A stretch of 64,000 bases of DNA, from contig JAQCIU010000006.1 of the NCBI GenBank assembly GCA_027593235.1, forward strand, positions 59,063-123,062. Reading direction: 5' to 3'. The notes under the pieces are model-generated. The model was not told where the DNA came from, did no database searches, and saw only the letters and a program-made list of their open reading frames with translations. Of the stretch, positions 21,678 to 63,248 are shown piece by piece. The position numbers were made by a program, and so were the translations under genes. Position 1 is the first letter of the stretch. Every line of letters begins with the position of its first letter. This stretch comes from Chloroflexota bacterium. Lineage in GTDB: Bacteria > Chloroflexota > Dehalococcoidia > UBA2979.

Positions 21678-22382
21678 GTGAAAGTCATCGGCAAGGACAT
21701 CGGCACGGTGCTCGATCGGCTCTATGCCGAGGTGGAGAGCCGCGTCACCGTGGAGGCCGAACGCGAACTGCGGTTCGAAGCGGGCGCCGAAGGCAGCTTC
21801 TCCAACGTCATCTGGCGCGCCGACGGCGTCGTCATCCAGCTCCACAACGGCGTGCCCAACAAGGCGCTGCCGCACGTCGTCGGCATCGCGCTCGAGCACG
21901 TCCGCCAGCGCCTCGAGCGCTACCCCTCGCTCCAGCGCCCCGCCGTCGACGAGGCCGATGGACCGCTCCTTCGCAGCGCGCTCCGTGAGCTCGTCCTCGC
22001 GCCCGCCGCCGATCACGCCCTCAAGGCGCTCACCCTCGATGTCCAGTGGGAAGCCGAACAGCGCCACCAGGCGCTCAAGGATCTGATCCGCGATCACGCC
22101 GAATGGGACGATCCCGCCGAGTCCGGCCACGCCTTCCTCGTGCTGCTCTACGCCCGCGCCGCGATCGAGCACCCGGCCGAACTCTGGCCGGCCCTCGACG
22201 CCGCGTTCCAGGAAGCGCTGCCGCGCGTCACCGAGCACGGACGTGCCGTCGAGGAGGCGGTCCGCCGCCACGGCTGGACGAGCCCCGGTGCCTGCCTCGA
22301 ATCCCTGCTTGCCGCGCGTGCGCTGCTCGATCTGGACGCACTCGCGCCGATCCTCGATCGCCGCACCGGCCAGACGCTCTAG
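21678..22382 (+). CDS. Hypothetical protein
   Basis: GTG start after GGAGG, genome-typical codons, no recognisable family. Confidence 0.75.
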   Translation: MKVIGKDIGTVLDRLYAEVESRVTVEAERELRFEAGAEGSFSNVIWRADGVVIQLHNGVPNKALPHVVGIALEHVRQRLERYPSLQRPAVDEADGPLLRSALRELVLAPAADHALKALTLDVQWEAEQRHQALKDLIRDHAEWDDPAESGHAFLVLLYARAAIEHPAELWPALDAAFQEALPRVTEHGRAVEEAVRRHGWTSPGACLESLLAARALLDLDALAPILDRRTGQTL

Positions 22383-59573: not shown

Positions 59574-60740
59574 TCAGCGCGCCGCGCCCTCGAGCCAGCG
59601 CCGCGTCAGCCGCTCCGCCGCCGCCCGCACCGGTTCCGCGCCCAGCGCCATCGCCTGCTCCACGGTCACGCCTTCCGGCGTCGAGCGCTCGGCATCGAGG
59701 ATCCCGGCCGGCCGGCCGCTGACCTGCCCGCCGATAGCGACGCACGGCCGTCCCAGCTCCGCCGCCAGCGCGCCCACGTGCCCCACTGTCTTGCCGTACC
59801 CGGTCTGCGCGTCCACCGAACCCTCGCCCGTGATCACCAGATCCGACTCCCGCATCGCGCCCTCGAGATCCACGAGGTCCGCCACCAGCGCCGCTCCGGA
59901 TTCGATGCCACCCGCGGCCCCGGCTGCGTGCGCGGCAGCCAACAGGCCCACCGGAATCCCGCCACCGGCCCCCGCGCCCGGCAAGCCGGCCAGCGCGATC
60001 CCGAGGTCGCGTTCGATGCACGCCGCCCAGCCCGCCAGTGCCGCTTCGAAGGCGGGGACCTGCCAGTCCCGCACGCCCTTCTGTGGGCCGTAGATCACCG
60101 TCGCGCCCTCGGGCCCCAGCAGTGGGTTTGTCACATCCACCGCCACCCGCAGCTCCACCGCCCCCAGCCCCGCCGGCGCCTCCCCACGCACCACCGAGGC
60201 CAGTCGCGCCAGACCCAGCGCGCCTTCCGGGATCGCCGCGCCACCACGATCGAGCAGCCGTAACCCCAGCGCGCGTGCCGCGCCCGCGCCACCGTCGTTC
60301 GTCGCCGTCCCACCGACACCAACCACGATCCGCCGCGCCCCGCGTCGCAGCGCGTCCGCGATCAGCTCGCCGACCCCGAACGTCGACGCCAGCGCCGGTC
60401 GCCGCAGCGCCGGCTCCACCAGCACGAGGCCGCACGCCGCCGAAGACTCGATCACCGCGGAACTGCCCGCGGTCGTTTGCAGCAGTGCGTACGTCGCCAC
60501 GACGGGATCGCCCAGCGGACCGGCCACCTCGACGCGCACCCGCTCGGCGGCGCTCGCTGCCAGGCAGGCGTCCACCGTCCCCGGGCCGCCGTCACCCAGT
60601 GGCACCTGGCGGATCGCGGCCGCCGCTCCCAGCGCCGCGCGCACGCCTGCCGCGATCGCCGTCGCCGCCTCAATCGCCGTCAACGAGCCTTTGAACTCTT
60701 GCGGACACACCAACACGCGGAGAGGAACGCTCGCCGTCAC
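59574..60740 (-). CDS. Glycerate kinase (GlxK family)
   Basis: PQEFKGSL, DGGPGT, GGTATNDGG, GAGAGGG, ITGEG..D.QT..GK. Confidence 0.95.
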   Translation of the reverse strand: MTASVPLRVLVCPQEFKGSLTAIEAATAIAAGVRAALGAAAAIRQVPLGDGGPGTVDACLAASAAERVRVEVAGPLGDPVVATYALLQTTAGSSAVIESSAACGLVLVEPALRRPALASTFGVGELIADALRRGARRIVVGVGGTATNDGGAGAARALGLRLLDRGGAAIPEGALGLARLASVVRGEAPAGLGAVELRVAVDVTNPLLGPEGATVIYGPQKGVRDWQVPAFEAALAGWAACIERDLGIALAGLPGAGAGGGIPVGLLAAAHAAGAAGGIESGAALVADLVDLEGAMRESDLVITGEGSVDAQTGYGKTVGHVGALAAELGRPCVAIGGQVSGRPAGILDAERSTPEGVTVEQAMALGAEPVRAAAERLTRRWLEGAAR

Positions 60741-60743
60741 CGC

Positions 60744-60923
60744 TCAGGCGCCCCAGCCGAACCACAGCCGCAACGCGGCGCTGATCAGGATCGCCGCGAC
60801 GTAGGCAAAACCCACCCGCTTCGCGTGAAAGCCAATCCGCCGTAACCGCGCCGGGGCGAACAGCACCAGGTACGCCACCACGAACACCGAGACGATCAGC
60901 AATGCACGGATCAGTGAGCCCAT
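60744..60923 (-). CDS. Small two-TM membrane protein (59 aa)
   Basis: Hand translation MGSLIRALLIVSVFVVAYLVLFAPARLRRIGFHAKRVGFAYVAAILISAALRLWFGWGA; GAGGGG upstream; stop 3 nt before glycerate kinase start. Confidence 0.7.
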   Translation of the reverse strand: MGSLIRALLIVSVFVVAYLVLFAPARLRRIGFHAKRVGFAYVAAILISAALRLWFGWGA

Positions 60924-61036: not shown

Positions 61037-61088
61037 TTGACAAGAACACTTGTTCTGACTACAGTCTCCGTACTAGAACATCTGTGCG
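61037..61088 (+). promoter_or_regulatory. Sigma70 promoter with LexA (SOS) boxes
   Basis: TTGACA(61037)-17-TACAGT(61060); AGAAC-ACTT-GTTCT at 61043-61056; AGAAC-ATCT-GTGCG at 61075-61088. Confidence 0.8.
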
Positions 61089-61154
61089 CCTTCACGCACA
61101 GGCACCCGCACCAACCGCGGTACTCGACGACGACCCAACGAACGGGGGCACGCA

Positions 61155-61349
61155 ATGACATCAACCAGGATCCGCAACACTCGACGCTCCGCGACTGGCC
61201 CCATCAGCGGACGCGCGGGCGCGCCATCGCTCATGCCGTTCGGGCCGGCACCGCGATTCGGACACCGTTGTCCCGACTGCGGCGGACCGCTCGCCTTCGG
61301 CGAGGGTTGCTCGCTCTGCCCGATCTGCGGACATTCCTCCTGCGCCTAA
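61155..61349 (+). CDS. Small Zn-ribbon protein resembling the NrdJ C-terminal Cys-rich domain
   Basis: CPDCGGPLAFGEGCSLCPICGHSSCA*; GGGGG upstream of ATG; own promoter. Confidence 0.78.
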   Translation: MTSTRIRNTRRSATGPISGRAGAPSLMPFGPAPRFGHRCPDCGGPLAFGEGCSLCPICGHSSCA

Positions 61350-61467: not shown

Positions 61468-62304
61468 ATGACACTGGCGATAGAGACACCGGCTGATTTG
61501 GCTGGCCTGACGCGGCGCGTGCGACGGCACGTTGTCGAGATGGTCTATGGGGCAAAGTCGGGCCACATCGGGGGTTCGCTGTCCTCAACGGACCTCATGT
61601 CCGTTCTCTACACCAAGTTCCTCCGCCATGACCCGGAACGCCCGAGCTGGCACGAGCGTGACCGCTTCATCATGTCGAAGGGTCACTGCACTCCCGTCCA
61701 GTACGCGCTCCTCGCGGAACTCGGCTACTTCCCGACCGAAGAGCTGAACACCTTCCGCCGCAAAGGCACCCGCCTCCAGGGCCACTCGATCCTCGGCAAG
61801 CCCCCCGGCGTGGACAACACCGCCGGCGCGCTCGGCATGGGCCTCTCCTTCGGCCTCGGTATCCGCCTCGCGCAGCGCCTCCAAGGTCTCGAGGACTCGC
61901 GCGTCTGGGTGTTGATGGGCGACGGCGAGCAGAACGAAGGACAGGTCTGGGAAGCCGCCATGGCCGCCGCGCATCACCGCGCCGAAGGCCTCTTCGCGAT
62001 CATCGATCGCAACGGCATCCAGAACGACGACTTCACCAAGACCACCATGAGCACCGAGCCGCTCGACGAGAAGTACCGCGCCTTCGGCTGGACCGTGCTC
62101 TCCGACCTCGATGGCCACGACCTCACGACGATCGAGCAGGCCTACCGCTGGGCGCTCGATCAGCGCAGCGCCCCCGTCTGCCTCATCTTCGACACCGTCA
62201 AAGGCAAGGGCGTCTCCTTCATGGAGCACAACCCCTCCTTCCACGGCGCGCCCCCCTCCGACGAGGAGTTCAAGGTCGCGATGGCGGAACTGGCGGACGC
62301 ATGA
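61468..62304 (+). CDS. Transketolase, N-terminal subunit
   Basis: SGHIGGSLS, DRFIMSKGH, GDGEQNEGQVWEA, TVKGKG. Confidence 0.95.
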   Translation: MTLAIETPADLAGLTRRVRRHVVEMVYGAKSGHIGGSLSSTDLMSVLYTKFLRHDPERPSWHERDRFIMSKGHCTPVQYALLAELGYFPTEELNTFRRKGTRLQGHSILGKPPGVDNTAGALGMGLSFGLGIRLAQRLQGLEDSRVWVLMGDGEQNEGQVWEAAMAAAHHRAEGLFAIIDRNGIQNDDFTKTTMSTEPLDEKYRAFGWTVLSDLDGHDLTTIEQAYRWALDQRSAPVCLIFDTVKGKGVSFMEHNPSFHGAPPSDEEFKVAMAELADA

Positions 62305-63248
62305 CCACCACCCAGGCCCCCGCTCCCGCCGCCACCCGCGAAGCCGTCGGACCGACGTTGATCCGGCTCCAGCGCGAAGGCCATAACCTCATCGTCGTCG
62401 ACGCTGACCTCGGCAAGTCCACCTCGGCGCGCAAGTTCCGCGACGAGTTCCCGGAGCGCTTCTTCACCTTCGGTGTCGCCGAGCAGAACATGATCTCCGC
62501 CGCCGCCGGCTTTGCCGCGATGGGCCACACCGTCTTCGCGACCACCTTCGCCGTGTTCGCCGAACACGCCTTCGATCAGTTCCGCATGTCGGTCGCGCAG
62601 CCCAACCTCAACGTGAAGCTGATCGCCAGCCACGGCGGCGTCTCGACCGGCGAGGATGGCGCCTCCGCCCAGTCCATCGAGGACATCGCCGTCTTCGCCT
62701 CCGTCCCCAACGCCAGCGTCTGCATCCCGGCCGACGTCGTTGAGTCCGAGGCAATCATCGAGGCCGCGGCCAACACCCCCGGACCGTTCTACGTGCGCAC
62801 CGCGCGCCCCAAGACCCCGGTCATCTACACCGACGGACCGCGCTTCAAGCTCGGCAAGGCGGACATGCTCCGCGACGGCCGCGACGTCACCATCGTTGCC
62901 TGCGGCCTGCTCGTCGAGCGCGCACTGCGCGCCGCCGACCAACTCGCCACCGAGGGCATCGACGCCCGCGTCCTGAACATGGCGACCATCCGCCCGCTCG
63001 ACGTCGCCGCCCTCGAGACCGCCGCGCGCGACACCGGCGCGATCGTCGTCGCCGAGGAACACCTCACCCACACCGGACTCGGCGCGATGTGCGCCCACGC
63101 GCTCGCCACCACCACCCCAGTGCCGATGGAGTTCGTCGGCGTCGAGCGCTACGGCGAGTCCGCCACCTGGTCCGAAGCCCTCGAGATCATGGGACTCACG
63201 CCGGAGGGCATCGCGGCCGCGGTGCGCAAGGTCGTCGCCCGCAAATAG
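62301..63248 (+). CDS. Transketolase, C-terminal subunit
   Basis: DADL, GVAEQNM, GEDGASAQ, IRPLD, AEEH. Confidence 0.95.
   Translation: MTTTQAPAPAATREAVGPTLIRLQREGHNLIVVDADLGKSTSARKFRDEFPERFFTFGVAEQNMISAAAGFAAMGHTVFATTFAVFAEHAFDQFRMSVAQPNLNVKLIASHGGVSTGEDGASAQSIEDIAVFASVPNASVCIPADVVESEAIIEAAANTPGPFYVRTARPKTPVIYTDGPRFKLGKADMLRDGRDVTIVACGLLVERALRAADQLATEGIDARVLNMATIRPLDVAALETAARDTGAIVVAEEHLTHTGLGAMCAHALATTTPVPMEFVGVERYGESATWSEALEIMGLTPEGIAAAVRKVVARK

Follow-up and report, generated by a model that had tools for sequence, protein, structure and literature searches.

A Stand-Alone Homolog of the Class II Ribonucleotide Reductase Tail as a Putative Member of the LexA Regulon in Uncultured Dehalococcoidia

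Introduction

The cysteine-rich C-terminal domain (CRD) of class II ribonucleotide reductases (RNRs) has been studied in NrdJd of S. nassauensis: according to the sections of that study cited here, all six Cys residues of the tail (920, 923, 933, 936, 939, and 945) are required for turnover with tris(2-carboxyethyl)phosphine (TCEP), the tail binds zinc, and residues 933 and 945 have been proposed to form a redox pair (Loderer et al., 2017, PMC5704485). The same sections report that electrons can cross between subunits, that the tail domain drives the formation of oligomers, and that no interaction with thioredoxin or glutaredoxin was found (Loderer et al., 2017). A zinc finger is present in 71% of dimeric class II RNRs, and in split class II enzymes a separate chain, NrdJb, contains it along with an IscU-like domain (cited sections of Burnim et al., 2022, PMC9669993). 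The subject of the present study is a free-standing relative of this module, a 64-amino-acid (aa) microprotein encoded at positions 61155..61349 (+ strand, stop codon included) of a 64,000-nt stretch of DNA, hereafter the window, from an uncultured Chloroflexota bacterium of the class Dehalococcoidia (assembly GCA_027593235.1, contig JAQCIU010000006.1, positions 59,063 to 123,062). It is highly probable that this is a conserved gene under LexA boxes, which encodes a homolog of the NrdJ tail.

The microprotein resembles the NrdJ CRD in its six-Cys array at the extreme C-terminus, in a sequence match at the very end of the family model, and in its predicted fold, a small zinc ribbon. It differs in that it is not attached to a reductase, that no IscU-like or TSCPD domain precedes the ribbon, that the gene has its own promoter and LexA operators, and that the ribbon has invariant G-P, G-E-G, and C-P motifs and no Lys/Arg before the last Cys. 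The spacing of the Cys residues is x9/x4 in the microprotein and in NrdJ1 of the same genome, as opposed to x9/x5 in S. nassauensis (cited sections of Loderer et al., 2017). NrdJb provides a precedent for a zinc-finger tail that serves a catalytic chain as a separate polypeptide; however, NrdJb has an IscU-like domain and partners a tail-less NrdJa, whereas the microprotein is a zinc finger alone (cited sections of Burnim et al., 2022). A further difference is that both NrdJ proteins of the genome under study are complete, and that the contig of the microprotein contains no nrdJ-like segment.

With regard to regulation, GAAC-N4-GTTC is the core of the Gram-positive-type LexA box, and the LexA box of Dehalococcoides is reportedly of the same type. 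The locus described here resembles such LexA regulons in that the GAAC-N4-GTTC core overlaps the core promoter, as it does at recA and lexA of this genome, and differs from them in its product, which is not among the known SOS functions. In the full-text literature, no description of a stand-alone NrdJ-tail protein or of a LexA-controlled nrdJ was found; the Chloroflexi LexA regulog of RegPrecise might list such genes, as the RegPrecise paper mentions LexA regulogs and a Chloroflexi collection, the contents of which are not part of its text. The paper on the LexA regulon of S. venezuelae contains no occurrence of “nrd” or “ribonucleotide.”

Relation of the Microprotein to the NrdJ Tail

The six Cys residues of the microprotein (C39, C42, C52, C55, C58, and C63; 61269..61343, + strand) follow the spacing CxxC-x9-CxxCxxC-x4-C, and the sequence ends one residue after the last of them. 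The tail of NrdJ1 from the same genome (G000) has the identical spacing and likewise ends one residue after its last Cys, and the spacing recurs in 16/16 NrdJ1 tails from relatives, which read roughly SGLT-CPDCG-xQL-xYxE(R/G)-CLxC-RSCGY-TK-C. In the NCBIfam model NF006417 (vitamin-B12-dependent RNR), residues 37-64 of the open reading frame (ORF) match the final model positions, 732-759 of 759 (E 5e-7, 28.3 bits), while Pfam yields only sub-threshold zinc-ribbon matches and no TSCPD domain for the 64-aa ORF. Comparison with NrdJ1-type tails gives 49% identity (E 6.8e-6), and the NrdJ2 tail is not reported at E ≤ 0.01; the microprotein is closer to NrdJ1-type tails than to the NrdJ2 tail. A preliminary description of the locus, made from the DNA letters, had recognized the Cys-rich zinc tail of class II RNRs in this motif. 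The recognition is borne out by the comparison with the NrdJ C-terminus in the family model, by the spacing shared with the organism's own NrdJ1, by the common terminal position, and by reciprocal matches, so that homology of the 26-residue ribbon to the CRD of NrdJ, from which it would descend, is strongly supported at the level of sequence.

The two parts of the microprotein are conserved to very different degrees. All six Cys and the residues P40, G44, P45, G49, E50, G51, P56, and G59 are invariant in 23/23 aligned sequences, whereas no invariant column precedes R38/C39 (alignment A1). The N-terminal part (residues 1-38; 61155..61268, + strand) is basic and variable, has an RLRR-like stretch in many homologs, and is shortened in some of them to only 6-12 residues before the ribbon, giving proteins of 35-50 aa in total with little beyond the module. 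From the 23-sequence alignment, AlphaFold2 predicts a three-stranded zinc ribbon for residues 41-64, with a predicted local distance difference test (pLDDT) score of 82-88, and disorder in the N-terminal half, where successive 10-residue blocks average 61, 52, and 54 over residues 1-30; the block of residues 31-40 averages 69. In the PDB, Foldseek found no structure matching the model at E ≤ 0.001 and returned generic zinc ribbons only, i.e., those of ribosomal proteins and transcription factors; a sequence search of solved structures gave an unrelated RING protein as its best match (E 0.028), and the ESM Atlas returned unnamed small clusters only. Judging from the predicted fold and the Cys array, the microprotein may bind zinc and be redox-active, with C52 and C63 as the presumed redox pair. 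Its own set of invariant residues marks it as a subfamily distinct from the NrdJ tails.

Promoter and Tandem Operators

The gene is preceded by a near-consensus promoter, TTGACA-17-TACAGT (61037-61065). Its -35 hexamer TTGACA (61037..61042, + strand) was found by sequence reading and by promoter scan, and its -10 hexamer TACAGT (61060..61065, + strand) by the scan, in which this promoter scores 10/12 matches; the 1-kb region contains 2 promoter-like sites compared to 0.2 expected from shuffles. The 17-nt spacer opens with the putative LexA box 1, the perfect palindrome AGAAC-N4-GTTCT (AGAACACTTGTTCT, 61043..61056, + strand). Box 2, an imperfect GAAC-N4-GTGC with one mismatch to GAAC-N4-GTTC (TAGAACATCTGTGCGC, 61074..61089, + strand), lies around the expected transcription start, 32 bp from box 1 (centre to centre), and scores 16.9 with the position weight matrix (PWM) described below. 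Further downstream, a Shine-Dalgarno-like GGGGG (61144..61148, + strand, sequence reading) is located 6 nt 5′ of the ATG that starts the microprotein gene, which itself is supported by the ORF list, by homologs, and by selection at the protein level. The promoter, the perfect palindrome in its spacer, the second imperfect box, and the 64-aa ORF are all situated where the preliminary description had placed them.

The bare motif does not stand out by number: the window contains 2 copies of GAAC-N4-GTTC compared to 0.81 expected, and 21/100 shuffles reach 2, which is not significant by itself. The box is judged to be more than a chance occurrence because of its position in the promoter and its conservation. 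The other exact copy of the window, at 21765-21776, falls below the genome-wide matrix threshold of 13 and is probably a chance match.

The Box as the LexA Box of This Genome

For a genome-wide view, a 16-nt PWM was built from 30 boxes upstream of relatives' homologs, and the whole genome of G000 (3.39 Mb in 78 contigs, 68% G+C, 89.7% complete) was scanned at a threshold of 13. The highest score in the genome, 24.8, belongs to the site upstream of the microprotein ORF. Other top-scoring sites lie upstream of an imuB-like IMS gene (24.2), nrdJ1 (23.7), recA (21.6), a MrfA-like DEAD/MZB helicase with two boxes (20.0 and 17.8), lexA (18.0), ruvB (17.7), dinB (17.5), and dprA (16.0), where the identities of the boxed genes are taken from Pfam. 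The recA promoter, TTGACC-17-TACTGT, has its box in the spacer and thus the same architecture as the microprotein promoter, and the GAAC-N4-GTGC variant of box 2 also occurs in the promoter region of lexA itself. The genome encodes a canonical LexA with LexA_DNA_bind and Peptidase_S24 domains (G000:C32, an ORF of 262 aa). Because the motif is common to the promoters of recA, lexA, and the translesion polymerases, it is assigned to LexA, and its identity as the LexA box of this organism is strongly supported by these promoter sequences. The SOS control that the preliminary description had proposed therefore gains support from the boxes at recA, lexA, the imuB-like gene, dinB, ruvB, and the helicase gene, and from the retention of the box upstream of homologs (see below); the microprotein gene would accordingly be bound by LexA and induced by DNA damage.

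The scan also drew attention to other loci. The tandem boxes at L034:2712-2762 (G000:C36:81211-81261) lie upstream of a gene for a 786-aa DEAD-box helicase with a MrfA zinc-binding domain, which places a mitomycin-repair-type helicase in the putative SOS regulon. Further high-scoring boxes (19.0-22.1, two pairs in tandem) are found at L029:1208-1257, L035:2012-2048, L030:1644-1659, L031:1912-1927, L032:1479-1494, and L033:2372-2387; no gene could be named in the stretches beside them, and closer inspection of two of the boxed loci revealed no clear gene. One such box pair lies beyond the 3′ end of an ORF that resembles seryl-tRNA synthetase (named by eye). These boxes possibly belong to further small SOS genes or RNAs.

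Conservation of Promoter and Operators

The operators are retained across homologs. Among 20 loci from the genomes of relatives, 16 could be parsed by the ORF pattern (4/20 could not), and each of these 16 small ORFs is preceded by a box with no more than one mismatch, 14 of them by two boxes. A larger sample was obtained by scanning a single genome for each prokaryote species; stand-alone homologs were located in 182 species-level genomes. The best 80 of these 182 loci were taken, of which 72 were parsed and 8 were not; the latter were excluded from the box counts and, read by eye, are mostly homologs with C-terminal extensions, along with L112 and L114, which lack the last Cys. In 69/72 parsed loci, the 400 nt that precede the first Cys codon contain at least one PWM match, and in 59 they contain two; in the remaining three, contig ends leave only 61-142 nt of upstream sequence. 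The preliminary description had singled out stand-alone homologs without LexA boxes as an observation that would speak against it, and among the parsed loci none was found outside these truncated ones. Altogether, 128 PWM matches fall into 27.8 kb of upstream zones compared to 0 elsewhere, and 0/710 control windows contain one; since the PWM was trained on boxes of the same gene family, PWM counts are partly circular, which weighs somewhat against the reading as an SOS gene, but exact-motif counts are not, and these give 78 copies inside the upstream zones and 1 outside in the same loci.

The core promoter is preserved along with the boxes: in 60/69 boxed loci, a TTGAC either overlaps the start of box 1 or precedes it by no more than 10 nt, and TAnnnT follows 16-18 nt after the TTGAC hexamer in 42/69. 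The distance between boxes is 29-36 bp in 48/59 two-box loci, with a full range of 21-50 bp. Gene, promoter, and tandem operators are thus inherited as a set.

Spread of the Gene and Selection on Its Product

Among 41 genomes of relatives, the small-frame match is clear in 19/24 genomes of the same family and weak in one more; the 4 same-family genomes without a match are 86-94% complete. Outside the family, 3/16 genomes from other families of the class have the microprotein. A word-indexed search retrieved 9 stand-alone proteins of 60-68 aa. The titles of the best 80 of the 182 loci name Dehalococcoidia, Chloroflexi, or Chloroflexota, except for one Acidobacteria and one uncultured bacterium, and the gene appears so far to be confined to uncultured Chloroflexota; the lineage described here is a high-GC one within Dehalococcoidia. 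In viral contigs, the two weak matches are other zinc ribbons without boxes.

A profile built from 23 microproteins was run against 1.84 billion cluster representatives and found 776 of them at E ≤ 1e-3. Among the best 150 of these 776, 103 are no longer than 100 aa, and 120 have the C-terminal six-Cys array, 116 of those with the 9/4 spacing. When 27 longer profile matches were scanned, 20 turned out to have an RNR barrel and/or a TSCPD domain. Two other matches are fusions of the same tail module: P0081 (147 aa) joins a glutaredoxin-like domain to a tail that matches NF006417 positions 711-759 (E 7e-11), and P0158 (150 aa) joins it to a cyclic nucleoside monophosphate (cNMP)-binding domain.

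Codon usage points to purifying selection on the microprotein as a protein. In 70 unique coding sequences, picked by a pattern that itself demands six Cys, the invariant Gly/Pro positions use 3-4 synonymous codons, and pairwise comparison gives 20,983 synonymous vs. 13,020 non-synonymous codon differences. All six Cys are kept in 71/72 parsed loci. The last Cys of the array is missing in L071, L112, and L114 (3/80 loci), by substitution or by an altered C-terminal end.

When NF006417 was run against the entire genome, nothing else was found on the microprotein contig beyond the 156-nt tail match itself, in agreement with the preliminary description, which had seen no nrdJ remnant adjacent to the ORF. 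Because the contig contains no other nrdJ-like segment, the ORF is a gene that stands by itself, not the remaining end of a disrupted nrdJ. This also bears on the suspicion that the ORF is a remnant of an nrdJ 3′ end without function or arose by chance, to which its shortness, a match to only the last 28 residues of NrdJ, and the lack of a Pfam family above threshold might lend color. The homologs in 182 species-level genomes, the clear matches in 19/24 genomes of the family, the selection visible in the pattern of synonymous substitutions, and the conservation of promoter, operator, and Shine-Dalgarno stretch all contradict it; the ORF is conserved and stands alone, and as far as sequence evidence goes, this suspicion is refuted and deserves practically no credence.

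The Reductases of the Genome and Co-Regulation With nrdJ1

G000 encodes two class II reductases, NrdJ1 (C37:21508-23727, + strand; 739 aa, barrel and TSCPD domain) and NrdJ2 (C53, a reading frame of 1208 aa). The box upstream of nrdJ1 (L001:1408-1423, corresponding to G000:C37:21436-21451) lies 64 nt before the start codon. In 15/17 genomes of the family, G000 included, nrdJ1 orthologs have a LexA box 34-64 nt ahead of their start codon, compared to 0/13 genomes from other families of the class. No such box was found upstream of nrdJ2 in G000. In this family, the smaller, second reductase of class II thus appears to belong to the SOS genes, and a second RNR that is inducible by SOS may be of interest independently of the microprotein. 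By these computed boxes, the microprotein would be co-regulated with nrdJ1, and it is present in all 16 family genomes that have nrdJ1, a count from kin genomes that does not amount to a statistical test. In G000, nrdR (G000:C37:19949-20389), nrdJ1, and recA are all located on the + strand within 8 kb (G000:C37:19949-27608), with nrdR about 1.1 kb upstream of nrdJ1.

The neighborhood of nrdR raises the question of whether the palindromes might be operators of another regulator such as NrdR, in which case the microprotein would belong to an RNR regulon instead of the SOS regulon. Apart from the gene order, the motif shared with nrdJ1 and the tandem arrangement of the boxes about three helical turns apart, a spacing typical of NrdR boxes, would be compatible with this idea. 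However, recA, lexA, dinB, the imuB-like gene, ruvB, and the repair helicase, all of them targets of LexA and not of NrdR, share this promoter motif; GAAC-N4-GTTC differs from the published NrdR box, the spacing of the boxes varies from 21 to 50 bp, and nrdJ2 has no such box. Control by NrdR is thus very improbable.

A Possible Role in Reductase Turnover

The resulting hypothesis is that the microprotein is the product of a LexA-repressed SOS gene, in which a ribbon derived from the NrdJ tail acts in trans on NrdJ turnover. In undamaged cells, LexA dimers on both boxes, one in the -35/-10 spacer and the other at the transcription start, would shut the promoter, and upon DNA damage, RecA-stimulated cleavage of LexA would release it. 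The same release would induce the LexA-boxed nrdJ1 in this family, such that the microprotein would appear alongside NrdJ1, RecA, and the translesion polymerases. The free module might then work on NrdJ turnover as a small thiol-disulfide/zinc module, which relays reducing equivalents or docks to the reductase or its tail, and as an outcome the supply of deoxyribonucleoside triphosphates (dNTPs) for repair synthesis would be raised or retuned. Action in trans on the turnover of the reductase is guessed because the full array of zinc and redox Cys residues of the reductase tail is retained, and the reductase is accordingly the presumed target. Co-regulation with nrdJ1 and the one glutaredoxin-like fusion (P0081) would favor a redox link. 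Taken as a whole, this statement falls just short of an even chance, and a positive effect of the microprotein on NrdJ turnover, taken by itself, is at best equally tentative.

Several observations weigh against this hypothesis. Both NrdJ1 and NrdJ2 retain their own Cys-rich tails, so that nothing in the genome obviously needs complementing; the preliminary description had left open whether the nrdJ of this genome lacks or keeps the zinc domain. Among the 8 family genomes without an nrdJ1-type gene, 3 still have the microprotein (G007, G011, and G020), and G025, from outside the family, combines a boxed microprotein with an unboxed nrdJ. The microproteins have diverged from the NrdJ1 tails, with G-P, G-E-G, and C-P invariants of their own, and the Lys/Arg before the last Cys, which is kept in 16/16 NrdJ1 tails, is missing from them. 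The glutaredoxin-like fusion is a single cluster representative with no genomic context. Finally, a separately expressed CRD, added in equimolar amount with TCEP, failed to restore a tail-less NrdJd, a result given as “data not shown” in the cited section and obtained with a larger CRD (Loderer et al., 2017). A complex prediction for NrdJ1 residues 1-700 (alignment of 12) and microprotein residues 28-64 (alignment of 23) with zinc gave scores of 0.12 and 0.31 compared to a mark of 0.32, and in a run without controls these values speak neither for nor against binding. The preliminary description had suggested a trans-acting helper or decoy of RNR. For this part of it, the co-regulation with nrdJ1 and the glutaredoxin-like fusion speak for a redox link, and the retained tails, the divergence, and the failed rescue of NrdJd against a simple helper role.

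A protein that resembles the tail could also act as its competitor. As a mimic or decoy, the microprotein would compete with the enzyme's tail for the active site, for the physiological reductant, or in oligomerization, and thereby brake or retune dNTP synthesis in the SOS state. Homology to the tail means that it could occupy the same sites, and the missing Lys/Arg next to the last Cys might be tolerable in a non-productive mimic. In function, it would then correspond to small inhibitors that bind RNR, such as Sml1 of yeast, which is tied to the DNA-damage checkpoint and is removed after damage. Like Sml1, the microprotein is a small protein set by a damage response with a presumed action at the C-terminal regeneration step of RNR; the two are unrelated in sequence, however, and a LexA-controlled gene would be induced after damage, when Sml1 is removed. 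Inhibition by Sml1 at the C-terminus of the RNR large subunit is named in the title of a work cited by Loderer et al. (2017, PMC5704485; their reference 27). Co-induction of nrdJ1 from the same type of operator fits an inhibitor poorly, and a purely steric decoy has no need of a presumed redox pair, yet all six Cys are kept (23/23 aligned sequences; 71/72 loci), which makes a decoy distinctly unlikely. The microprotein might instead have left the reductase behind altogether, as a ribbon recruited from an nrdJ 3′ end that now binds, e.g., nucleic acid, RecA, LexA, or the division or replication machinery, as many small SOS-induced proteins do. Such a target would be in line with the invariant residues that set the family apart from NrdJ tails, the basic leader with its RLRR-like stretch in many homologs, the presence of the gene in genomes without nrdJ1, the fold, for which the only matches are generic zinc ribbons from ribosomal proteins and from transcription factors, and the fusion of the module to a cNMP-binding domain in P0158. 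It leaves the conservation of the exact six-Cys array unexplained, including the two non-zinc Cys that are assigned to the redox pair in NrdJd (cited sections of Loderer et al., 2017). Moreover, the leader is dispensable in the homologs of 35-50 aa, and the recurring neighbors, the 389-aa ORF and the split transketolase (see below), give no hint of another partner. An SOS effector with a target other than RNR is therefore rather unlikely, less so than a decoy. For the reductase as the target, both modes of action can be combined in a damage-induced, diffusible partner of class II RNR, which either recharges the Cys-rich tail as a mediator or, by mimicking the tail, resets the activity and the oligomeric state of the enzyme; we regard this as possible but doubtful.

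Neighboring Genes

In the window, the microprotein gene is flanked by a divergent glycerate kinase gene (59574-60740, - strand) and by genes for the N- and C-terminal subunits of a split transketolase (61468-62304 and 62301-63248, both + strand). The transketolase gene downstream of the microprotein has its own promoter-like site. A scan of the 1-kb region showed no terminator in the interval from the microprotein gene to the transketolase gene, and therefore damage-induced read-through into the transketolase genes is possible. A metatranscriptome run (X16), in which a tenth of the sampled words are present, has no bearing on expression of the ORF, as its contigs cover only 62040-62300, within the transketolase, and none lies over the ORF. 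Upstream of the SOS promoter, a divergent ORF for a hydrophobic 59-aa protein (60744-60923, - strand) has a G+C content at third codon positions of 0.86 and no family match in Pfam or NCBIfam. Across homologs, the neighbors are less constant than the gene and its operators: a 389-aa ORF occupies the place of the glycerate kinase, divergently upstream, in 37/80 loci, and two transketolase subunits follow downstream of the microprotein in 31/80.

Significance

Repair synthesis needs dNTPs, yet a direct effect of the SOS regulon on ribonucleotide reductase is not known from most bacteria. In the family of uncultured Dehalococcoidia described here, both a second reductase of class II and a free version of its regeneration module are placed under putative LexA control. 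What is new is that a known domain occurs as a free-standing protein and that the SOS regulon gains a putative member. With it, a well-defined, conserved family of very small proteins (35-85 aa) joins the SOS genes of a phylum in which the response to damage has hardly been studied. The conserved promoter with its tandem operators would lend itself to use as a reporter, and the natural variants without the last Cys (L071, L112, and L114) would be useful for probing the presumed redox pair.

If the module acts on the enzyme, it would provide a direct and testable handle on how class II RNRs have their Cys-rich tail reduced in vivo, and on whether bacteria, like eukaryotes, tune RNR with small proteins after DNA damage. 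If the proposed partnership with class II RNR is true, the microprotein would represent the first case in bacteria of a small protein that regulates RNR and is wired directly to LexA, acting jointly with an SOS-inducible second reductase, nrdJ1.

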